Positions 3 to 21,031 are shown, numbered from the stretch's first letter. The stretch: DNA of 27,250 nt from Patescibacteria group bacterium (GCA_004321885.1 SCQK01000009.1:1-27250); one strand, 5' to 3'. Notes: generated by a model from the sequence alone, not told the origin. Numbers and translations: made by a program.

Positions 3-3000
3 TATTTAAATAAAGAAGGAAAAAATCAATATGAACACTATCACCCAAATTTGGTTGATTTGATTAAAAAAACTGTAAAGGAAAGAGGTGAAATAGCGCC
101 GGAAGGATGGATGACTAATAAAGGGCTGGCGGAGATGTTGAAAAAAAACAAGTGGATAATTAATACGAAAGCCAATCAATACAGGCGTTCTTATCCTCAG
201 TGGTTTAAGGCGTATCTAATTCCGTCACTCAAACGGAAACATGAACATTATCATCCTAAATTAGTGGAAATAATTATTAAGGAGATTGAAAACGAAAAAG
301 AATATACTGAAAAAGACAAACTAAAGAAAGAAATGTGTGACTTTGTACAAGAATTAATCAATGGTAGTACAGATAAAAACAAGGATTTCCAATCAATAAT
401 ACGTGTCTGTGGCCCTTCACGCTATTTAGATATTCTTTATAAATTCCACCCTGAATATAAAGGATTGCCCGTGGATTACGTAAAAGGCGTCATCGCCGAC
501 TATCTTGGCGATTTTTTGGTAGCAAAAGGCGAATTTAGACCCGAAGATGTTCCTTTCACTTTAGAATATCTGTCGGATATCACTTTTCAAGAGGGCCTTT
601 ACGAAACCATCAAGGACAACTGTCTAAAATACTATTTTGAACAAAAACGTGCCGGCAAAAAAGACAGCCACGAAATAATTTATGGCTATCTAGATCACAT
701 GGTGAGCGAACTCGGCCACCTTAATAATTCAGTGCTTGATGACATCATTCAAAAAGTGATTGTTTACTACGATTCCGTTTTGCGTGACTTTTATAAGCCG
801 TCAAAATTCGTGAATACACTTAGCAAAGATCGCGAATTTCCGGATTTGAACCAAAAAATAAACATGAAAGAATTGACTGAAAAGAAACGCTTGCTCATCG
901 CCGATGAAATGGGTTTGGGGAAAAGTGCGTCGGTCATCATGGCCAAAGAACAATTGAGAATAAAATGCGCTTTAGTGGTAGCCCCCAGCAATGTATTAAA
1001 TACATGGCAACAATATTTGTCAGAAGTAGACGCTACTGACCCGAAAAGGGGCGGCTATTTCAAAAGCGGGCAAGCGCCACGGGTATTAAAGGTGGAAAAC
1101 GACGAGGACTTAGACCAAGTCAATGCCACTAACTACGACTACATCCTTATTTCCCAGGAACGTTTGAGCGGAGCCAATTATGTCGATAAATTACTGACGA
1201 CTGACTATGACATGTTGATAGCCGATGAAGTGCACAAATTGAAACGGCTTGAAAGCGCGCGCGCTCCGGAACTGTTACGGCTGGCGGGAAAAATAGAGGG
1301 AAAAGATAAATACCTGGCTCTTCTTTCCGGTACACCAATCCCAAATAAAATTGAAGATTTGGCTCTGTTACTCAAACTTCTTTATCCAAAAAAATTTGCT
1401 TCTGTTGATAGCGATGAACTCATCCAACAAATTATCTGCGGTGATACCATGGATCTGCGTGCTCTGTTGCTACCACGGATGCAAATGAAAAATTTGGAAG
1501 AGGGCGTGGAGATGCCTACGTTAACCGAAGAGACGATTAAAGTAGAACTTGATAAATTAGAAAAAGACATATATGAAGTACTCTTAGAGGAAAACGAACT
1601 AACCGCCTCGGAAAAAATAATAATGTTAAGACAATTTCTTTTAAATCCGGAATTGCTGAATTCTACTCCCGGGATTGAAGGTTCAAAAATAAAAGAACTA
1701 TCAAATAGCTTGGACACGGCTTTCCGACATCACGACAAAATCGTAGTGTTTGTTAATGACTACATTGAAGGAATAATGCGGGGGGAAAAATCAATCATAA
1801 AAAAATTACAATTGCCAGCCGATGTGACAATACGGGCAATACATGGAGAAACCGGCAAAGAGGAGCGGCTGGCAATACAGCAGGAATTGCGCCCGGCGCA
1901 TGGAAAATTTTTGCTATTTGTAAGCGGTCAGACAGCCGATGTGGGTGTTGATTATTCCGGCGCTCAACATGTCTTCTTCTACAATGAGCCATGGACCGAA
2001 TATCAAAAACGTCAAGAATTGGGCCGCGTCTATCGTCCCGGGCTGGAAGAAGGTTTGGAAAGCGACACGCTTGTCTCTGTCGGCACAATTGAAGAGGGCA
2101 TTCATGAATATATCCGCCGAAAATACATCGCCGTGGAAAAATTATTACGCGGGATTCCGATTACTGATTTGGAAAAAGAACTGCTGGAAAAAGACGAGAA
2201 AAGCAAGGAGCCGGATTTGTCAGTCAACCCGGAACTGGCCCAATACTATTTCTCTTCATGGGATAAGATGATGAAAATATTTGGTTATGTAAAAGAAATT
2301 GGCGAAGAAAAATTCAATAAATTTTTGTCCAAATACGCCAAGGATTACGCTGACTGCTATTTAGATCTGGGTAATCGCAGTTACCAGTCAAACGCCAACC
2401 GCGTATCCGGTACGCTAATCCATAAATTAGTGAAAGAATCCGGCAGTTCCGCGGAGTCACTGAAAATAATAGACATCGCTTCGGGCCCGGAAATGCTCAA
2501 ACAGCATATTGGAGACGAATATCGTGATAGAATTTTCAGCATTGATATCAACAAACAACATTTCGCGACACGAGAGGGTAACAAAAGAGTCGCTGGGAGC
2601 TTGTCGGCGATGCCTTTCGCAGATCAGTCCTTTGATTTCGCCAACATATCTCTTGCTCTGCATTACACTGGCTTCGCTCCAAGCAAGGGAAAACTGGAAC
2701 GGCTAAAAGTATTAATGGAAACTAATAGAATTCTGAAAGAGGGTGGCAAAGCGATAATTAATCTGATTTATACTCTTGAGCCGAAAGATTTTGAAAAATT
2801 TAAAGAAGCGGCCGAAGTGTTGGGTTTCCGAATTGTTGACGGATACACAGGCGAAGTTAGCGCGGACAAACAATATCTTTCCCGCGTCATTACGTTAGAA
2901 AAAATAAAAAATCTGGATACTAAATTGACCACGGAAGATATGTCCGGTCAATTGGGTAAAGAGAAGCTGGAGGGACTAAAATTCAAAAAAACTGAGGCGA

Positions 3001-3269
3001 AATTAAAGGATTCGCGACAGATTTTGACTTCTTTCAAATTGGGCGGCGCTAAAATTGACGTGCATTTTAACGAGGATGACTTAATGGTGTTAAAAGAAGA
3101 ACAAGAATTGTTGAGGGAGGGGGAATCGCTGAAGCGAAAGTACACAAAAATCGTAAATATACCGCCGCAAGAAATTATTGACCATAATTTTGTTCGCATC
3201 AAAATAGGAAAAAAATATATACTATTCAAAAAGTTATCCAAGGGCTCGGGAGTAGTAATAGTAAAATAA
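3..3269 (+). CDS. SNF2-family helicase fused to a C-terminal class I SAM-dependent methyltransferase; 5' end open at the window edge
   Basis: SNF2 motifs: I 'LIADEMGLGKS', II 'MLIADEVHKLK', III 'LSGTPIPNK', V/VI 'FVSGQTADVGVDYSGAQHVFFYNEPWTEYQKRQELGRVYRPG'. Class I MTase motifs: 'IIDIASGPE', 'SIDIN', 'PFADQSFDFANISLALHY', 'LKEGGKAII'. Reading frame is open back to nt 3, and the first listed start (TTG at 51) is probably internal. About 37% GC, lysine-rich C-terminus. Confidence 0.8.
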   Translation, partial: YLNKEGKNQYEHYHPNLVDLIKKTVKERGEIAPEGWMTNKGLAEMLKKNKWIINTKANQYRRSYPQWFKAYLIPSLKRKHEHYHPKLVEIIIKEIENEKEYTEKDKLKKEMCDFVQELINGSTDKNKDFQSIIRVCGPSRYLDILYKFHPEYKGLPVDYVKGVIADYLGDFLVAKGEFRPEDVPFTLEYLSDITFQEGLYETIKDNCLKYYFEQKRAGKKDSHEIIYGYLDHMVSELGHLNNSVLDDIIQKVIVYYDSVLRDFYKPSKFVNTLSKDREFPDLNQKINMKELTEKKRLLIADEMGLGKSASVIMAKEQLRIKCALVVAPSNVLNTWQQYLSEVDATDPKRGGYFKSGQAPRVLKVENDEDLDQVNATNYDYILISQERLSGANYVDKLLTTDYDMLIADEVHKLKRLESARAPELLRLAGKIEGKDKYLALLSGTPIPNKIEDLALLLKLLYPKKFASVDSDELIQQIICGDTMDLRALLLPRMQMKNLEEGVEMPTLTEETIKVELDKLEKDIYEVLLEENELTASEKIIMLRQFLLNPELLNSTPGIEGSKIKELSNSLDTAFRHHDKIVVFVNDYIEGIMRGEKSIIKKLQLPADVTIRAIHGETGKEERLAIQQELRPAHGKFLLFVSGQTADVGVDYSGAQHVFFYNEPWTEYQKRQELGRVYRPGLEEGLESDTLVSVGTIEEGIHEYIRRKYIAVEKLLRGIPITDLEKELLEKDEKSKEPDLSVNPELAQYYFSSWDKMMKIFGYVKEIGEEKFNKFLSKYAKDYADCYLDLGNRSYQSNANRVSGTLIHKLVKESGSSAESLKIIDIASGPEMLKQHIGDEYRDRIFSIDINKQHFATREGNKRVAGSLSAMPFADQSFDFANISLALHYTGFAPSKGKLERLKVLMETNRILKEGGKAIINLIYTLEPKDFEKFKEAAEVLGFRIVDGYTGEVSADKQYLSRVITLEKIKNLDTKLTTEDMSGQLGKEKLEGLKFKKTEAKLKDSRQILTSFKLGGAKIDVHFNEDDLMVLKEEQELLREGESLKRKYTKIVNIPPQEIIDHNFVRIKIGKKYILFKKLSKGSGVVIVK

Positions 3270-3483
3270 TTTTCTTCACCTACCAAACTTCAATGGCAGA
3301 TATACTATATAGCGACGTCGGACTCGCCCCCTATTTTGATATTGACAAAACTGCTAAAAATAGCATACTATTCCCTGCTGACTTATCAGTGGATAGCGGC
3401 TCCCGCCCGGTTTTAAAATTTCTTGACTACCGAGCGGGAACCACTATCAACCAACAACGTACATTCCGCAAGGAGAAATTCCG

Positions 3484-4623
3484 ATGGCTCTTTTCTTCCC
3501 CGGACTTTCAAAGACGTTTCTCGGACGCTACGAAAACAACCCCAAAGAGCTCCGCGTTCTCCAAGTGATCTGCGAACACCTGCGCAGTGGTTACACCACT
3601 GGAAAAAAGCGCGGCGCTGGATCTAAGGAAGACAAGGTCTTTCAAGACGCGAAGGACTCCCTGGAAAAAGAAGATGTCCCCTTGGAAAGAAAGGACTTCA
3701 TCTACATCAAAGCCGGGATCCGAATCGCCTACAAAATCCTCGTGGGCGAAGAGGGTGAGGATACGAGCACCACGCTTTCAGAAAACATCATCTCGGATTT
3801 GCGTGTGGATGGCATAACAAACTGGACAGAGGTGCTCCGGGCAAACGGCGACCTGGACTATCTGTTCAAGAATGAGCGCGAAACGGCCGCGCGGGCCGAA
3901 GCCGCGCTCACAGAAGCCCAAGCAACTCTGGAAAAGCTGGCGTCGCGCACCAACAAGGTGCGCGTGAGCGAAAAGCTCATAACCTTGGTTGGCGAACTGC
4001 TTCCCACGCTGGAGGATGTCCTCGCGGAAAACGAATCGCTCAAGGAGGCGGCATCGCGATTCGCCGAAGAGCGAACAGAATCAGAACGTAAGCTTCTCGA
4101 AGCCGAAACAATGATTCGCCTGCTCGAAGAGGACAACGATTCGGCCCAGGGCCGTTTGGACAGCGTCAGGGCAGAACTCCGGAAGGCCCATGACCTCTCG
4201 GTCTTGCAATTGGCTCTCCAATATCCACAGCATCCCCAGCTCATGGAGATAGCCCAACGCATTGAGGAAGATAAGAAGCAAGGGCAAAACGAGATGGGGA
4301 CGTTGGTTGCCCAACTACCAAAAACCTACACTGGAGGAACGATAGAATACAAGCAACGATTCCTCCGACTACTGTTCGATCTCGCGCGAAACGAACAGGA
4401 GCAGATCATCGGTCAACTGCGAAATCTGGCCGAACAGGGGCCGAAGCATGCTTCCTTGCACACGAGGAAGACGCAAATACGTCTCCTCTACAGCCCGATG
4501 GACTGCATGGTTTCCCGCGGCGCGGATGACATCCGCTTCACATGGAGCAAGGAGAACGGCGCGATTACCGTTCACTGGCTCTACCGAAAGGGCGATAGCC
4601 GCGTGCGTCAATCCGAGGCATAA
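3484..4623 (+). CDS. hypothetical coiled-coil protein in a GC-rich (foreign-looking) segment
   Basis: ATG preceded by AAGGAG 8 nt upstream. About 57-60% GC against an AT-rich neighbour. Central E/R/L/A-rich heptad-like region. Intrinsic terminator follows immediately. Confidence 0.6.
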   Translation: MALFFPGLSKTFLGRYENNPKELRVLQVICEHLRSGYTTGKKRGAGSKEDKVFQDAKDSLEKEDVPLERKDFIYIKAGIRIAYKILVGEEGEDTSTTLSENIISDLRVDGITNWTEVLRANGDLDYLFKNERETAARAEAALTEAQATLEKLASRTNKVRVSEKLITLVGELLPTLEDVLAENESLKEAASRFAEERTESERKLLEAETMIRLLEEDNDSAQGRLDSVRAELRKAHDLSVLQLALQYPQHPQLMEIAQRIEEDKKQGQNEMGTLVAQLPKTYTGGTIEYKQRFLRLLFDLARNEQEQIIGQLRNLAEQGPKHASLHTRKTQIRLLYSPMDCMVSRGADDIRFTWSKENGAITVHWLYRKGDSRVRQSEA

Positions 4624-4640
4624 TTCGCCTCCCCCGCCTT

Positions 4641-4673
4641 ATCCCGCTGTTCGCCCGGCGGGATTCTTTTTTT
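4641..4673 (+). terminator. rho-independent terminator: ATCCCGC...GCGGGAT stem followed by TCTTTTTTT
   Basis: 7-bp GC stem with 10-nt loop and a U-tract. The U-tract overlaps the stop codon of the convergent - strand gene. Confidence 0.6.
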
Positions 4674-5916
4674 ACACCAACTCAAACCTCCGCCGGCGGC
4701 CGTAGAGAAGATAAATAATGAGAGCAATAATAGCTATAAAAATAAACGTGCGGTAATACGGCACATAAAGCGCGAGAACGCCCCAGCCGCTTATCCACTC
4801 AATAGAAATTGAGCCCTGCACCGTCTCCACGTTGTTTATCAACTGTCGGTCTTGCTGGTCCAAGAAAACAAGCTGTTCCTGTTCGTTTTTTATTCGCGCG
4901 TCAATTTCATTTCGTTTCTTCTGGTACTGCGCGTTCTCGTTGGCCAAAAGCTGATTAAGCCGGCGCTGTTCGGTTGACAGATTACTAACGGCGACCGCGA
5001 TTTCCTGTTGGCGCTCGGTGCTGGTGGTAAATTCTTTTTTTAATTTATTGATACTGTTAGCCGTATAGCTTAACTGTTGTTTTAGTGAAGCGACCTTGGT
5101 ATTATGGCTGACCACCAAGTCCTGCCTTTGTTTTTGCGAATCCGCCAGAGCGCTTTGGGAAGAAGCTGTGTTTTGTTCAATGACGGTTTTCTCGGGCAAC
5201 AGATTGCGCGAGTTTATTATTTCAGCCATAAAGCGCGGACTGGCGGCCAATTCCTTCAACTCGTCCTTAAACGATTCCATCTCTGATTTGGGTAGCACAA
5301 ATTCAATGCGCGCGTATTTGGAATCCGACGATGAATTGTCTACACGGCCGCCATGCCCGCGCACTATAGTCTGAGCGCGCGTCGCTTTCTTTTGCACTTG
5401 TCGTGTTTTAATTTCGGCGTGATAATCGGTTTTCAAGTATTCGCGGGTGTCAAAGGGTGAGGCCTGCGTAAAATAACGGCCAATACTTTTAGCGGCTCCA
5501 CCAACTATCTCGCCTACGATTCCACCAGCGGTAACCTCACGCGCGCTAAGACCGGTATACGCGCCATAAACAACGCCTAAATCGTTTGCGCTGATTTCTC
5601 CAGAAGAGGATCTCTGATAGCCAACTTTGCTCGCCGCATCATAACCGTAGCCAGCAGGGTTCAAACCATGATCGGCCGAAGTTAAACGATTTAAATAGAA
5701 ACCTTGCGTAACGAAAAATAAAATAGATAACCCCCCGCAGACAAACGCAATCCGCCAAGGATAACGAAAACGGCGACGTTCGGGTTGAACAGTATTTTGC
5801 GTTCTAAGCGCGGCAAAAATCCTCGCCTTCATCGCTTCGTTGCCAATTGGCAATATTCGCTCTTTCTGCCCCCAATGATGAAGTAAATCTTTTAAATTGT
5901 AACTGACTTGTGTCAT
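4672..5916 (-). CDS. DUF4349-like membrane protein (putative anti-sigma factor partner)
   Basis: TM helix 'IAFVCGGLSILFFVTQGFY' near the N-terminus and 'VLALYVPYYRTFIFIAIIALIIYLL' at the C-terminus. Q/E/K-rich coiled-coil segment. Lies directly downstream of, and co-oriented with, the ECF sigma gene. Confidence 0.55.
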   Translation of the reverse strand: MTQVSYNLKDLLHHWGQKERILPIGNEAMKARIFAALRTQNTVQPERRRFRYPWRIAFVCGGLSILFFVTQGFYLNRLTSADHGLNPAGYGYDAASKVGYQRSSSGEISANDLGVVYGAYTGLSAREVTAGGIVGEIVGGAAKSIGRYFTQASPFDTREYLKTDYHAEIKTRQVQKKATRAQTIVRGHGGRVDNSSSDSKYARIEFVLPKSEMESFKDELKELAASPRFMAEIINSRNLLPEKTVIEQNTASSQSALADSQKQRQDLVVSHNTKVASLKQQLSYTANSINKLKKEFTTSTERQQEIAVAVSNLSTEQRRLNQLLANENAQYQKKRNEIDARIKNEQEQLVFLDQQDRQLINNVETVQGSISIEWISGWGVLALYVPYYRTFIFIAIIALIIYLLYGRRRRFELV

Positions 5917-5974
5917 AAACGAAATGGGTGAGGAAAATATTTTCGAACGAATGAGTCTATATGTGACGCAGCCC

Positions 5975-6508
5975 TTATACTATTGTGTTAAAACCCGTGC
6001 GCGCCCGAGCCAGCGACCGATGCACGCGCACTCGCGCTGTGATAACGGAAATTTCCAGCACCCGCGCGATTTCTTTAAACGGCAAATCGGCGATATAGCG
6101 CAAACGGAGCAATTCCCTGTCTTCTTCCGGCAACATTTTCAAAATCTTTTCCACCAAAAATTTTTCAGACAAATCGCCGCCGACTGAAACCGTTTGGAAA
6201 TTTTCCTCGTTAGTTTCTTCAATGGATCTCTCTCGGCCGTTCTGCCGCCAATGCTGGCGGCACTCGTTGCGCGCGATGGCAAACAGCCAGGAGCTAAACC
6301 TTACGCCGCGGGCATGAAATTTTGCCAGCGATGCTATCGCCTTGAGCCATGTATTCTGCAAAATATCATCGGCCAAACTTTTTTCGCGCAAGGTGTTCAC
6401 CAGATAGCCGTACAATTTCGGCGTGATGGCGTCCCAAAGCAAGCCCAAAGCGGCCTGTTCTCCTTTTTTGGCCCGAGCTATCAAGGCAAGTTCTTCGTGT
6501 ATTTCCAT
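5975..6508 (-). CDS. ECF-type RNA polymerase sigma-70 factor
   Basis: Region 2 ('LLWDAITPKLYGYLVNTLREKSLADDILQNTWLKAIASLAKF') and region 4 ('DRELLRLRYIADLPFKEIARVLEISVITARVRVHRSLARAR'). Start chosen at internal Met 'MEIHEEL' (ATG 6508-6506) with GGGAGG about 12 nt upstream. The ORF-track extension to 6703 runs through a promoter, structured RNA and terminator. Confidence 0.8.
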   Translation of the reverse strand: MEIHEELALIARAKKGEQAALGLLWDAITPKLYGYLVNTLREKSLADDILQNTWLKAIASLAKFHARGVRFSSWLFAIARNECRQHWRQNGRERSIEETNEENFQTVSVGGDLSEKFLVEKILKMLPEEDRELLRLRYIADLPFKEIARVLEISVITARVRVHRSLARARTGFNTIV

Positions 6509-6589
6509 AGATGTCTGTTTGCCTCCCCGTCGGGAGTGCCACCATTCTACTAAAGATAATGCGCGAAAGCAATAAAATGTTACATAAAC

Positions 6590-6614
6590 AAAAAACCGCC
6601 TCGCGAAGAGACGG
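6590..6614 (-). terminator. rho-independent terminator (- strand): CCGUCUC-UUCGC-GAGGCGG followed by UUUUUU
   Basis: Read on the - strand: 7-bp stem with one G-U pair, then a T6 run. Sits between the tRNA-like structure and the sigma gene start. Confidence 0.55.
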
Positions 6615-6623
6615 CTTTGAGTG

Positions 6624-6692
6624 TGGAGCCAAGGGGTATTGAACCCCTCTATCCGAGTGCTAACCACGGAACCCTCACCATGAGGTGGCCCC
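6624..6692 (-). ncRNA. tRNA-like degenerate element (acceptor stem plus perfect T-arm, non-canonical D/anticodon region)
   Basis: - strand: GGGGCCA...TGGCTCC acceptor pairing (7 bp with one G-U). T-arm AGGGG-TTCAATA-CCCCT with canonical T-loop. Only 69 nt, no encoded CCA, no standard D-arm. Preceded by an extended -10 'TGGTATAAT' at 6712-6720 (- strand). Confidence 0.3.
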
Positions 6693-6705
6693 CTGTACTC
6701 CACGC

Positions 6706-6720
6706 GAGCATTATACCAAA
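6706..6720 (-). promoter_or_regulatory. extended -10 promoter 'TTTGGTATAATG' (- strand) driving the tRNA-like RNA
   Basis: TGnTATAAT consensus read on the - strand. A second similar box 'TTGGTATAGTG' lies at 6794-6806 (- strand) ahead of a second small hairpin and terminator unit. Confidence 0.4.
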
Positions 6721-6732
6721 TTTTGAGGCATC

Positions 6733-6758
6733 AAAAAAGCCCGAGATATTTCTCGGAC
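6733..6758 (-). terminator. rho-independent terminator (- strand): GUCCGAGA-AAUA-UCUCGGGC followed by UUUUUU
   Basis: 8-bp stem, tetraloop and T6 when read on the - strand. Terminates a roughly 60-nt transcript from the 6794-6806 promoter-like box. Confidence 0.55.
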
Positions 6759-6898
6759 TTTCAGGGTTCAATAGAATCCGTGGTTAGCATTATCACTATA
6801 CCAATTTTAATAATATTTGTCAATATCACCTATCCACACCCCCTTTACTAAATGTCTTTTGAGAGATAAGATATATCCAGAAAATTACCCCCACCCAA

Positions 6899-18072: not shown

Positions 18073-18945
18073 ATGGATAGTACAAAATTCTTAAAAATAG
18101 AAAAAATAACAGACGAAACCCCGTTCGTCAAAACATTCTATTTTAATCATCGCCTAAACAGCAAGCCCGGGCAATTTGTGATGCTCTGGCTACCGGGAAT
18201 TGACCAAAAACCGTTTTCCATCGGCTGGGAAGATGAAAACGGCTTTGCCCTGACTGTGTTCAATCGCGGACCGACGACGAACAAACTGTTTGAAATGAAA
18301 GCCGGCGAACGAGTGGGCATTAGCGGGCCCTACGGTACTTCTTTTTCCGTGCGCCCAAACACGCGCTATATCATGGTCGCCGGCGGCTATGGCGCCGCGC
18401 CTCTTTCTTTTTTGGCCAAGCAGCTATCTGTCATTGCGAGGAGCGTAGCGACGAAGCAATCCCAATCTACAAAAATTGATTTCCTCCTCGGCGCCCGCTC
18501 GGCCGAACACGTGCTATTTGAAGACCGTCTGTCAAAATTACCCAACACCAAAATCCACATCGCCACCGACGACGGCAGTAAGGGACATAAGGGATTTGTG
18601 ACCGACCTGCTTTCATCTGTCATTCCTGCGAAAGCAGGAATCCACGACAACTCACTGGATGCCCGTTTTCACGGGCATGACATATTCGTCTGCACTTGCG
18701 GCCCCGAACTGATGGAAAAAAAAGTTTTGGACGCTTGCAACGTCGCCGGCGTGGAATGCGAAATCAGCATTGAACGCTACATGAAATGCGGCGTGGGCGT
18801 GTGCGGACAATGCGCCGTGGACGACCTGGGCCTGCATATGTGCAAAGAAGGGCCGGTGGTAAGCGGCGCGCTCGCCAGTCAAATTAAAGAGTTCGGCGTC
18901 TACCATCGCGACAAAAGCGGGAAAAAAGTATACTTCGAAAATTAA
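18073..18945 (+). CDS. pyrK: dihydroorotate dehydrogenase electron-transfer (FAD/2Fe-2S) subunit
   Basis: FAD/NAD-binding fold and C-terminal 'CGVGVCGQCAV' cluster motif. Two in-frame family A insertions. Confidence 0.85.
   Translation: MDSTKFLKIEKITDETPFVKTFYFNHRLNSKPGQFVMLWLPGIDQKPFSIGWEDENGFALTVFNRGPTTNKLFEMKAGERVGISGPYGTSFSVRPNTRYIMVAGGYGAAPLSFLAKQLSVIARSVATKQSQSTKIDFLLGARSAEHVLFEDRLSKLPNTKIHIATDDGSKGHKGFVTDLLSSVIPAKAGIHDNSLDARFHGHDIFVCTCGPELMEKKVLDACNVAGVECEISIERYMKCGVGVCGQCAVDDLGLHMCKEGPVVSGALASQIKEFGVYHRDKSGKKVYFEN
18429..18463 (+). repeat. family A half-element in-frame in pyrK
   Basis: 'tgtcattgcgaggagcgtagcgacgaagcaatccc' matches the left 35 nt of the 13111 element with one mismatch. 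Encodes 'SVIARSVATKQSQ'. Confidence 0.75.
18618..18642 (+). repeat. family A short hairpin in-frame in pyrK
   Basis: 'tgtcattcctgcgaaagcaggaatc' matches the pyrC copy at 14899. Encodes 'SVIPAKAGIH'. Confidence 0.75.
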
Positions 18946-18961
18946 GTCCAAAGCCAATTAT

Positions 18962-19006
18962 AAAAAAAGAAAAAGCTCTCATTCCGTGCGATGACGAAAC
19001 GAGAGC
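18962..19006 (-). terminator. rho-independent terminator for the - strand GC-rich gene
   Basis: - strand: GCTCTCGTTTCG-loop-CGGAATGAGAGC (imperfect 11-bp stem) followed by TTTTTCTTTTTTT. Confidence 0.5.
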
Positions 19007-19082
19007 GAAACGAACCGAGGGACCAAGTGACCCAAGCCCTTCCGATTTGGCGAAAGGGCTGAGGCACCAAGGATCCCAGGGC

Positions 19083-19730
19083 CTACTTGCCGCGAGGAAG
19101 GAGATAGGAGGCGCCGAAGCCGTAGACAACCCAGCGGACGTCCAGCACCCAGCGAGCGCCGACCCAGGAGAGACAGGCCACGTAGAGGCCGCCACGCCGG
19201 CCGCGCAAAAGCGTGCCCGGCAGGACGATGATCTTGTCCTGCATCTCCTTCGGGATCTCGGCCTGGCACTCCAGCATACGCTTGCCATCCACCAGGCCGT
19301 AGTTGGCCTTGAGGACGACGGCGCGGGCGCGCATGACCTCGCCGTTGACATAGCCCGGGTCATCGGGCTCGAGGAAGGACACATACTCCAAGTCCTTCAC
19401 CTCGAACTGCGACGGGGCCACATCCTCCACCACCTCCCACTTGCGCTTCTTGCCTGCCTCGTCCTCGTACTCGGGGATGAGGTCGGCGGCGAGCAACTCG
19501 GACGGGAGCTGGTCGCGCTTGATCGATGCCGCCACGCTTTCGCCGTTTTCCTCGCCGATCGGCTCCAGCTTCAGCCGGAGCTTGCCGGCGCGAAACAGCT
19601 CCACGTTCTGCGCGCCCGTCTCACATCCGCCGAACTCCGCCCACAGCTTGAGGATCATGGCCCAGATCTGCTTCCCTGTCAGACCCTCCAGCACGGCCTC
19701 CAGTGTCTTCCCTTCCACTCTCGAACTCAT
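19083..19730 (-). CDS. hypothetical protein in a GC-rich (about 62% GC) inserted segment
   Basis: ATG with AAGGAG 7 nt upstream. Balanced E/K/D/L composition, unlike the Ala/Arg/Leu-rich overlapping frames. Terminator downstream. Interrupts pyrK...pyrE. Confidence 0.5.
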   Translation of the reverse strand: MSSRVEGKTLEAVLEGLTGKQIWAMILKLWAEFGGCETGAQNVELFRAGKLRLKLEPIGEENGESVAASIKRDQLPSELLAADLIPEYEDEAGKKRKWEVVEDVAPSQFEVKDLEYVSFLEPDDPGYVNGEVMRARAVVLKANYGLVDGKRMLECQAEIPKEMQDKIIVLPGTLLRGRRGGLYVACLSWVGARWVLDVRWVVYGFGASYLLPRGK

Positions 19731-19895
19731 GGCTGTTCTCCTTTCCGGCGCCTCGCCAGAATGGCAATTTGCCCCGCCCCGGGGCTCGGGTTTTTATGCT
19801 AAAAATAACAAAGAGCTAACAGCGATTTATATCACAACATTACTGCTTCTGTCAAGCTAAACACCGTCACAACCGCCATATCCTTTCACAAACCC

Positions 19896-19928
19896 TTGCG
19901 CGATTATCTGCGCGATTCTTGCGCGATT
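19896..19928 (+). promoter_or_regulatory. three direct repeats of TGCGCGATT (11-12 bp spacing) just upstream of the fic -10
   Basis: 'ttgcgcgatt' 19896, 'ctgcgcgatt' 19908, 'ttgcgcgatt' 19919. Operator- or iteron-like. Confidence 0.5.
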
Positions 19929-19938
19929 TAATTTTTTA

Positions 19939-19947
19939 TGGTATGAT
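19939..19947 (+). promoter_or_regulatory. extended -10 promoter TGGTATGAT for fic-pyrE-pyrF
   Basis: TGnTATGAT 29 nt upstream of the fic ATG. Same box type as 'TGGTATAAT' at 6712-6720. Confidence 0.45.
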
Positions 19948-19975
19948 ATTGGCAAGGAATTCTTCGGCCTAAACT

Positions 19976-21031
19976 ATGTTTGAACCAAAGTATAAAATCA
20001 CCAATCAAATCATCCAGATGCTCACCGCCATCGCCGAGGCCAAGGCGATTATTGAACGCGCGCGCCTTTTGCCGAAGCACGAACTCAAACTGCGACGCCA
20101 GGCCCTTCTCCGCATGACCCACAGCTCCACGGCCATAGAAGGCAACCGGCTGAATATGCGCGAAGTGGAGGCCGTGGCGGCGCGCAAAAAAGTGGATGCC
20201 CCGGAACGCGAAATCTATGAAGTAAAAAACTACCTGGAAGCGATTCGCTACATTGAAAAAGTCGTAAAAAACAACCAGCCAATCACCGAAAAGATTATCT
20301 TACAAATTCACCGGCTTGTAACCGACAAAACTTTGCCGGCACATTCCTCGGGGCAATATCGCAAAGGGCCGGTGTATGTGGTGCGGCGCTGGAGAGACGG
20401 CCGCCAGGAAGTTTTGTATACCGCGGCTGGCGCCGGACAAGTCCCCGGTCTTATGGCCGGCTTAACGCGCTGGCTCGCTGAAAGTGAAACGCAAAATATC
20501 AGCCCAGTCATCGTGGCCGGTATCGCGCACCAGGAAATCGCGGCTATTCACCCCTTTGCCGACGGTAATGGCCGCACCGCGCGCGCCCTGGCCACGCTTA
20601 TCCTTTACCGACGCGGCTACGACTTTCGCCGCCTTTTCGCCCTGGAAGATTTCTACAACGAAGACAGGCCGTCGTATTATCGCGCCATCAACGTCGGCAA
20701 AAACTACCAACAGCGCCGCGTTGATTTTACGCCATGGCTGGAATATTTTGTGCGCGGATTTAAGGAAGAAATTATTAAAGTGAAAAATAACGTGCTCACA
20801 CTATCGGCCAAAAAGGTTGACAAAAAAATTGAAGCGCAAATTTATCTTGATAAAGACCAGCTCAAAATTTTGGAGTTTGCCGACCAGATGGGAAAAATAT
20901 CCGTGGGCGACGTGGTGGATATTTTGAGTTGTCCCAAACGCACCGCCCAATCGTATCTACAAAAATTAAAAAAACTGAAAATTATCCGGCAAGTCGGCAA
21001 AGGGCCGGCCAGCGGATATATAATAGCGTGA
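19976..21031 (+). CDS. fic: Fic/Doc family protein (class II, N-terminal inhibitory helix) with C-terminal winged-helix domain
   Basis: Fic motif 'HPFADGNGRTARAL'. Inhibitory motif 'STAIEG' ([ST]xxxE[GN]) near the N-terminus. C-terminal HTH-like 'ISVGDVVDILSCPKRTAQSYLQKL'. Stop is 6 nt before the pyrE ATG. Confidence 0.85.
   Translation: MFEPKYKITNQIIQMLTAIAEAKAIIERARLLPKHELKLRRQALLRMTHSSTAIEGNRLNMREVEAVAARKKVDAPEREIYEVKNYLEAIRYIEKVVKNNQPITEKIILQIHRLVTDKTLPAHSSGQYRKGPVYVVRRWRDGRQEVLYTAAGAGQVPGLMAGLTRWLAESETQNISPVIVAGIAHQEIAAIHPFADGNGRTARALATLILYRRGYDFRRLFALEDFYNEDRPSYYRAINVGKNYQQRRVDFTPWLEYFVRGFKEEIIKVKNNVLTLSAKKVDKKIEAQIYLDKDQLKILEFADQMGKISVGDVVDILSCPKRTAQSYLQKLKKLKIIRQVGKGPASGYIIA

Follow-up and report, generated by a model that had tools for sequence, protein, structure and literature searches.

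A patescibacterial gene encoding a three-part coiled-coil protein that ends in a predicted RelE-like domain

A 27,250-nucleotide (nt) stretch of DNA from an uncultured member of the ultra-small Patescibacteria (Patescibacteria group bacterium, GCA_004321885.1, SCQK01000009.1:1-27250; the whole of this stretch is referred to as the window) carries, at positions 3484-4623 of the plus strand, a gene for a 379-amino-acid (aa) protein whose C-terminal domain is predicted to adopt the RelE/ParE fold, the fold of toxins that shut down translation. The protein belongs to a divergent, unannotated RelE-like family that is fixed in a new three-part architecture, in which an N-terminal domain and a long coiled coil precede the RelE-like domain within a single chain; literature searches returned no description of such an arrangement. 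On balance, we consider that the protein probably acts as a cytoplasmic multidomain toxin of the RelE/ParE superfamily, restrained in cis by its own N-terminal part. From conservation across an alignment of 101 full-length family members, the protein was divided into four parts, which are listed below together with the complete coding sequence and the codon of one residue considered further on.

3484-4623, plus strand: coding sequence, 379 aa (translation of the open reading frame, ORF; NCBI name 'hypothetical protein EPN28_02680 [Patescibacteria group bacterium]')
3484-3849, plus strand: conserved helical N-terminal domain (N-domain), aa 1 to ~122, delimited by family conservation and by helices of a low-confidence full-length model
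3874-4203, plus strand: variable linker and long coiled-coil-type helix, aa ~131-240, with model helices at 134-155 and 159-237
4204-4314, plus strand: connector, aa 241-277, conserved and containing an A-x-x-x-P-x-x-P-x-L motif; it runs up to L278-P279, which are near-invariant
4315-4620, plus strand: C-terminal domain (C-domain), aa 278-379, predicted member of the RelE/ParE superfamily (BECR fold, RelE-like)
4534-4536, plus strand: codon of R351, aligned with R61 of RelE ('YRLVY') and R65 of YoeB ('HRLVY')

The assignment of the C-domain is carried by structure prediction. Modelling of aa 278-379 from a nine-sequence alignment gave a predicted local distance difference test score (pLDDT) of 76.5 and a predicted template modelling score of 0.72, and the model consists of a short strand, two consecutive helices and three antiparallel strands, the topology that a recent preprint assigns to RelE-like members of the BECR fold (bioRxiv 10.64898/2026.08.28.747851). 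When this model was compared with the PDB using Foldseek, nearly all of the top 50 matches came from the RelE/ParE superfamily (RelE, YoeB, YafQ, HigB and ParE), among them 1wmi_A (E 4.6e-4), 2khe (target-normalised TM-score 0.72) and the ribosome-bound RelE of 4v7k. As judged from this model, the C-domain thus has a RelE/ParE (BECR, RelE-like) fold. A preliminary description of the gene had noted, as a speculation, a faint likeness of the C-terminus to RelE/ParE-fold toxins and had quoted a C-terminal peptide, which we located at aa 331-371; the fold model and the Foldseek matches agree with that likeness.

The evidence from sequence is weaker than that from the fold and appears to point the same way. 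Using a profile of 71 C-domains, the best PDB sequence was Staphylococcus aureus YoeB (E 0.066), aligned over the full domain such that the 'SR' of the family falls on the YoeB 'SRR' and its 'LRFtW' on 'HRLVY'. The only Pfam family matched by more than one of 14 C-domains was Gp49 (2/14, E 0.11), which is counted as one of the RelE/ParE superfamily's toxin families in a recent survey (Gerdes 2025, PMC11980606). The closest single-domain relative of the C-domain that we found is encoded in a locus from Falkowbacteria (L081, 6930-7504), in which the genes for a 99-aa AbrB/MazE antitoxin (PF04014) and a 92-aa toxin overlap. This toxin has sub-threshold matches to HigB-like, YafQ and ParE_toxin models (E about 1e-3), and its comparison with the family profile using hhalign returned a probability of 93.7% (E 1.8e-7).

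Across 142 divergent C-domains, the conserved positions are K329, S344, R345, R351, F352, W354, the basic residues 368/369, G370-D371 and S377-E378, with the strongest conservation on basic residues lining what corresponds to the active-site face of RelE and YoeB. R351, which is arginine in 139 of 141 C-domains, occupies the position of RelE R61 and YoeB R65, both of which are catalytic.

At the level of curated models the family is silent: the whole protein matched no Pfam, NCBIfam, PADLOC or PDB-sequence entry, and its domains, searched singly, gave nothing or coiled-coil noise. A first word-indexed homologue search was swamped by words from the coiled coil and returned one relative (31% identity), whose last ~60 residues were far better conserved than the rest; a C-domain query, followed by a profile from which the coiled coil was omitted, brought up more. 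About a dozen further members came from C-terminal queries and from scanning metagenomes, and an exhaustive profile search finally retrieved 151 clusters (50% identity) at E <= 1e-3, 102 of these at E <= 1e-10. Every family member with a source name is from Patescibacteria. Patterns derived from the family, being too specific, found no match among GTDB representatives, and a scan of viral contigs gave none either.

The C-domain was present in 146 of the 152 retrieved proteins, always at the very end, and the proteins are mostly 320-400 aa long. Short entries, which we had considered as naturally split or short forms, were rejected as such, since in each case a start codon had been called too far downstream in a long open frame. 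The linker and coiled coil are the least conserved segment of the family in sequence and are modelled with a pLDDT of up to 89 at aa 200-220 of our protein, while in the connector boundary P279 is kept in 133 of 139 relatives. The full-length model places helices across the first 320 residues, one of them spanning 159-237, at low confidence (pLDDT 54.6). The constant part of the family is the coiled coil with the RelE-like domain, and the N-terminus is variable, being replaced in a minority of members. On the coiled coil and RelE-like module we found transmembrane N-termini (P0033, P0043) and a tandem duplication of the N-domain (P0069); the unrelated N-termini of four others, including one in locus L012 (84-974), may resemble winged-helix domains, one of the four having a weak Mrr_N match (E 0.014).

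In the N-domain, conservation extends family-wide to M1, F5, L6, S9, Y12, R25, R26, L33, Y37, G64, D75, R80, A82, L86, L106, D109, G110, I111 and W114. A profile of 44 N-domain sequences had no PDB match below E 0.47, and no Pfam family was common to more than two of the 44 members, and the one shared to that extent is spurious. As a separate observation, another locus (L002, 1158-1623) holds a decayed copy of a family gene, in which the N-domain and coiled coil are deleted and the first ~20 codons (MAVYFLENSPTY...) run directly, but in a different frame, into the connector and C-domain; this copy represents either a pseudogene or an assembly error.

In the mechanism that we favour, the C-domain would act as a ribosome-dependent mRNA endonuclease through R351, helped by S344-R345, by R368/K369 and by the tail conserved at the C-terminus. 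Dimerisation and coupling would fall to the coiled coil, and the N-terminal part would keep the nuclease in check, being either a fused antitoxin or a sensor, the latter releasing the nuclease upon a signal such as phage infection or stress. We place the restraint within the same polypeptide, on its N-terminal side, because no gene for a separate antitoxin lies nearby. A more far-reaching version, tentative and in our estimation doubtful, would see in the family a Patescibacteria-centred class of antitoxin-less single-chain RelE nucleases, in which a specific signal (such as a phage protein or host contact) is perceived by a novel N-terminal sensor and, via a dimeric coiled coil, triggers ribosome-dependent cleavage of mRNA. 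If this were true, a single gene of the family would serve these bacteria, whose genomes are minimal, as a switch for abortive infection or dormancy, with swappable N-termini acting as alternative sensors.

Several observations weigh against a self-restrained toxin. That the protein cleaves RNA, is toxic and is controlled in cis is what we infer and not a biochemical result, and the fold by itself does not tell an RNase of the RelE type from a gyrase poison of the ParE type. The C-domain matches no curated Pfam, NCBIfam or PADLOC model at threshold, and Escherichia coli RelE alone, compared with the family profile, reached an hhalign probability of only 15%, albeit in the same register. The position of RelE Y87 is occupied by Q376 in our protein, with tyrosine at 375 or 376 in about a third of the relatives, and the equivalents of YoeB E46 and H83 are not conserved. 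The N-domain matched no known antitoxin or DNA-binding family, and that of our protein departs from the family at six conserved positions (P6, F12, V25, L26, D64 and I75). Finally, given the pLDDT of the full-length model, no contact between the N-terminal part and the C-domain is supported.

Three other readings of the protein have to be weighed against this one. With the same fold, the C-domain could have a ParE-like target, poisoning gyrase or binding another protein, and not be a ribosome-dependent RNase. The best sequence links lead to RNases, that is to YoeB and, via the L081 toxin, to HigB-like proteins and YafQ; the equivalent of the catalytic arginine of RelE and YoeB is near-invariant, and several more basic residues are conserved. 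Moreover, ParE toxins have a C-terminal helix, whereas the C-domain model ends in a short conserved tail without one, and we consider a ParE-like activity quite unlikely. Somewhat more weight, although still within the range of the unlikely, is due to a repurposed, non-toxic binding module of RelE-like fold in a structural or regulatory coiled-coil factor, for instance one associated with the ribosome or with cell division. This would be in keeping with the lack of an antitoxin gene in any context, with neighbours that are often housekeeping genes (murG/ftsW, rplK/nusG/secE, ATP synthase), and with canonical Tyr/His/Glu catalytic residues that are not uniformly retained. Conservation that peaks at the basic residues of the RelE/YoeB active-site face speaks against loss of the activity, and, as described below, a sporadic distribution (0/80 gatB loci) and atypical codons fit an accessory gene and not a core factor. 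A role in cell division is also suggested by the name 'cell division protein ZapB' that NCBI gives to one homologue (P0005), a name that apparently derives from the coiled coil alone. We rejected ZapB and cell division as a coiled-coil artefact: our protein has no match to ZapB (PF06005), and in relatives ZapB and comparable coiled-coil families stay sub-threshold (P0018, a coiled-coil match of 21 bits against a cut-off of 31.5).

Since Patescibacteria are often episymbionts, a toxin delivered by secretion or contact could also be envisaged, in which export or delivery would be the task of the N-domain and coiled coil, and the RelE-like domain would be the warhead against a host cell, in the style of polymorphic toxins. 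A C-terminal toxin domain after a long helical region resembles the polymorphic-toxin layout, a self-protecting antitoxin would be unnecessary if the domain were inactive until delivery, and some variants of the family have transmembrane N-termini, as indicated above for P0033 and P0043. However, the sequence of our protein has neither a signal peptide nor a transmembrane segment, and in place of an immunity gene it is followed by a terminator and a convergent gene. Within the family, conservation is highest at the C-terminus and the regions before it vary, which is the reverse of polymorphic toxins. RelE-like proteins are, in addition, described as mainly intracellular (bioRxiv 10.64898/2026.08.28.747851). 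Because it is the C-terminus that is conserved and no immunity gene follows, we reject a polymorphic toxin and regard delivery as extremely improbable.

The restrained cytoplasmic toxin that we favour can be compared with several known systems. Like the monodomain type II toxins RelE, YoeB, YafQ and HigB, the C-domain has the predicted fold with the same order of strands and helices, an arginine in the central strand and a preceding 'SR' that align with those of RelE and YoeB, and a short C-terminal tail with conserved residues. These toxins are ~90 aa long and have antitoxin genes, whereas our protein has 379 aa, its toxin-like domain ends a three-part protein, and there is no adjacent antitoxin gene such as characterises a classical type II module; RelE Tyr87 and YoeB Glu46/His83, as mentioned, are not conserved in the family. 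Fused RelE/ParE toxin-antitoxin genes have been described (Gerdes 2025, PMC11980606), and these likewise combine an N-terminal non-toxin part and a C-terminal BECR toxin in one chain without a partner gene. For the fused modules dimerisation via the N-terminal part has been proposed (PMC11980606), which in our protein the coiled coil would provide. The fusions differ in carrying recognisable antitoxin domains (Phd/YefM, ParD, RHH, HTH) and in having been identified from Pfam toxin families, while our protein matches no Pfam model in either its N-domain or its toxin domain and has an ~80-residue coiled coil between the two; the survey, which started from Pfam families, mentions neither coiled coils nor Patescibacteria (PMC11980606). 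Transmembrane domains are found in the ToxM-type BECR toxins (Gerdes 2025), and also at the N-termini of P0033 and P0043, our protein having none.

Cami1, an ancillary protein of type III CRISPR systems, consists of a CARF sensor domain and a RelE nuclease, and its structures (PDB 8phb, 8phj) are among the fold matches of our protein, which, however, has no CARF match in Pfam or PADLOC. No CRISPR array or cas gene turned up in the window by repeat finding (3260-3500 and 18800-20000) and Pfam scans of its ORFs, neither of which was a dedicated CRISPR search. The fused toxin-antitoxin genes and Cami1 would be the closest working analogies, and we describe our protein as possibly working like them, and not as a member of either group, because it has no recognisable antitoxin or CARF domain.

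Toxins of the RelE/ParE type belong to the most thoroughly studied in bacteria, and surveys begin from Pfam families. The present family of ~150 clusters escapes Pfam, NCBIfam and PADLOC, one of its members being mislabelled 'ZapB', and a family model could correct the annotation of such genes. With the RelE-like domain permanently within a larger protein and no antitoxin gene, the family offers a simple system, of one gene only, in which to study what holds back such a nuclease and what sets it free, and a candidate defence or dormancy function for organisms with very small genomes and a largely obscure biology.

As indicated above, the codon usage and the distribution of the gene bear on its status in the genome. 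The ORF has a GC content of 54.6%, so that the ~58% given in the preliminary description was overstated; the highest 500-nt window reaches 56.8%, and 60% is attained only in aa 131-240. The sharp difference from the flanking genes that had been claimed is true with respect to the upstream gene (40.4%) and the downstream gene (47.0%), but compared with the whole window (49.4%) and with its housekeeping genes (gatB, carAB, pyr genes, efp and ruvA; 50-53%) the ORF is only slightly high. Its GC content at third codon positions (64.7%) lies inside the housekeeping range (55-67%) and is therefore unremarkable. The real GC outliers of the window are the upstream SNF2-methyltransferase gene (low) and the region 19000-19750 (64%).

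Synonymous codon choice in the ORF is, by contrast with its base composition, atypical (z = -5.4, log-likelihood under a pooled/housekeeping codon table of the other genes of the window), with AAG used for 77% of lysines (22% in housekeeping genes), CTC for 43% of leucines (13%) and CGA for 26% of arginines (8%). Corresponding z values are -7.8 for the upstream SNF2-methyltransferase gene, -5.4 for the downstream membrane-protein gene and -0.1 for the gene of an extracytoplasmic function (ECF) sigma factor. The tetranucleotide correlation of the ORF (0.44) is the lowest in the window, a signal inflated by the coiled coil rich in Glu, Leu, Ala and Arg.

For comparison of neighbourhoods we used GatB, encoded in the window, and examined 80 related loci from GTDB representatives with up to 10 kb of flank per side. 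The nearest GatB relatives (up to 74% identity) belong to Magasanikbacteria and other Patescibacteria among the GTDB representatives. Many of these nearest genomes are labelled 'uncultured Gammaproteobacteria bacterium' and yet group with Magasanikbacteria or other Patescibacteria, the label probably being a placeholder or a mislabelled taxonomy in submissions of metagenome-assembled genomes assembled in bulk. A full-length member of the family was found near gatB in none of the 80 loci, and the single-domain L081 toxin described above in one; the SNF2-methyltransferase and the membrane protein were likewise absent from all 80, and carA was kept downstream of gatB in 6. Homologues of our gene lie in a different neighbourhood each time (murG/ftsW, rpiB, rplK-nusG-secE, ATP synthase, M48/LemA, dnaG-rpoD), and across ~10 such contexts the neighbours were unrelated to one another and included no conserved neighbour or candidate antitoxin gene. 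In the window, a non-coding gap of 214 nt precedes the gene, a terminator and a convergent gene follow it, and there is no adjacent small antitoxin gene.

The gene would thus seem to be an accessory, not a core, gene of a Magasanikbacteria-like Patescibacterium. Its atypical codons, together with its absence beside gatB in 80 genomes, make acquisition plausible, and horizontal transfer in particular remains plausible but unproven, given that a loss of synteny is to be expected anyway among relatives sharing only 74% GatB identity. The preliminary proposal of a horizontally acquired cargo gene is in keeping with the codon usage and the ever-changing contexts of the homologues, and full-length homologues in syntenic positions, which would have told against it, were not seen in the 80 loci; its GC argument is weak.

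The same proposal had made the gene the cargo of a single island at 3270-6700, together with a sigma/anti-sigma pair and a tRNA-like remnant at 6624. In such an island the remnant would be a tRNA-derived attachment site at its boundary. The element in question is the following.

6621-6692 (with flanks 6592-6715), minus strand: tRNA-like cloverleaf, 69 nt, with acceptor stem and T-arm

A tRNA-like T-arm and acceptor end are indeed present at 6621-6648 (-), our gene and the downstream membrane-protein gene have the same codon z, and the block is absent beside gatB in related genomes. Against an island, no integrase, recombinase or transposase was encoded among the scanned ORFs of the window, and the 3' end of the tRNA-like element (AGGGGTTCAATACCCCTTGGCTCCA), searched for as a direct repeat with up to three mismatches allowed, has no second copy in the window. 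The sigma factor gene, ordinary in its codon usage, looks native, and the three atypical genes differ so much in GC (40.4%, 54.6% and 47.0%) that they hardly suggest a single imported segment. The homologues elsewhere lack flanking sigma/anti-sigma genes and tRNAs. The tRNA-like element, moreover, appears to be a whole small gene and not a fragment: it is closely preceded by an extended -10 box (TGGTATAAT) and closely followed by a terminator (6618-6592), and therefore looks like an expressed small RNA gene and not a remnant. Taken together, these results leave an island of this extent very unlikely, and we do not retain it.

The signals for expression of the gene and the features flanking it are as follows.

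3342-3371, plus strand: promoter-like site, TTGACA, spacer of 16-18 nt, CATACT or TACTAT; 10/12 consensus positions, by consensus match only
3389-3451, plus strand: imperfect 23-nt inverted repeat, arms 3389-3411 and 3429-3451, 83% complementary, between the promoter-like site and the ribosome-binding site
3470-3475, plus strand: Shine-Dalgarno AAGGAG, 8 nt upstream of the ATG, from direct reading and comparison with other gene starts
4641-4674, plus strand: intrinsic terminator, 9-bp G+C-rich stem and 6-nt loop (hairpin 4641-4664), followed by TTCTTTTTTT

The ATG start is supported by an M-A-x-x-F-L N-terminus common to the whole family. Among 22 listed gene starts, judged by eye, that of our gene is the sole one with a canonical, well-spaced Shine-Dalgarno sequence, so that the strong AAGGAG ribosome-binding site of the preliminary description, unlike those of most host genes here, was found as described, as was its clean intrinsic terminator, whose hairpin folds at -15 kcal/mol (z = -2.3). 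The convergent gene at 4672-5916 (-) has its stop codon within reach of this terminator, the T-run and the stop codon overlapping. With a promoter-like site, a strong ribosome-binding site and a terminator of its own, the gene is a self-contained unit. The inverted repeat, when folded as RNA, reaches -36.7 kcal/mol (z = -3.8) and could be a hairpin of the 5' untranslated region or an operator-like palindrome. No inverted repeat was found upstream of six of the seven homologues checked, the seventh (L016) having an unrelated 20-nt palindrome, and the repeat is therefore a local feature and not one of the family.

In the tRNA-like element itself, the 7-bp acceptor stem (GGGGCCA/TGGCTCC) is perfect and the T-arm (AGGGG-TTCAATA-CCCCT) is canonical, but they are combined with an abnormal 'D arm' (5-bp stem, 3-nt loop) and a poor 'anticodon' arm (loop GTTAGCA, with a U-U mismatch in the stem). 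ARAGORN made no call for it, Rfam returned weak tmRNA and mascRNA-type matches only, and the element is not conserved upstream of gatB in the relatives. Close by, at 6733-6823 (-), lies the best promoter match of the region (TTGACA, 17 nt, TATAGT with TG; 11/12), followed after ~30-60 nt by a hairpin and T-run (AGTCCGAGAAATATCTCGGGCTTTTTT), which could delimit a very short small RNA. Positions 6778-6789 hold a perfect 12-nt inverted copy (CCGTGGTTAGCA) of 6658-6669 in the tRNA-like element.

Three further regions of the window were recorded. The upstream gene (51-3269, +) encodes a 1072-aa fusion of an SNF2-family helicase and an S-adenosylmethionine-dependent methyltransferase, is lowest in GC (40.4%) and most atypical in codon usage (z = -7.8) within the window, and in its helicase part resembles defence helicases (PADLOC ZorD, DpdE, DrmD and BrxH); in other loci it is unlinked to our gene. 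The GC-rich region at 19000-19750 (64%) contains, antisense in the pyr cluster, a 215-aa ORF (19083-19730, -) that encodes a plausible protein with no Pfam match, and the plus-strand ORF overlapping it looks non-coding. Finally, a Fic-domain gene (19976-21031, +; PADLOC SoFic, E 2.8e-56) is situated within the pyrimidine cluster, between pyrK and pyrE.

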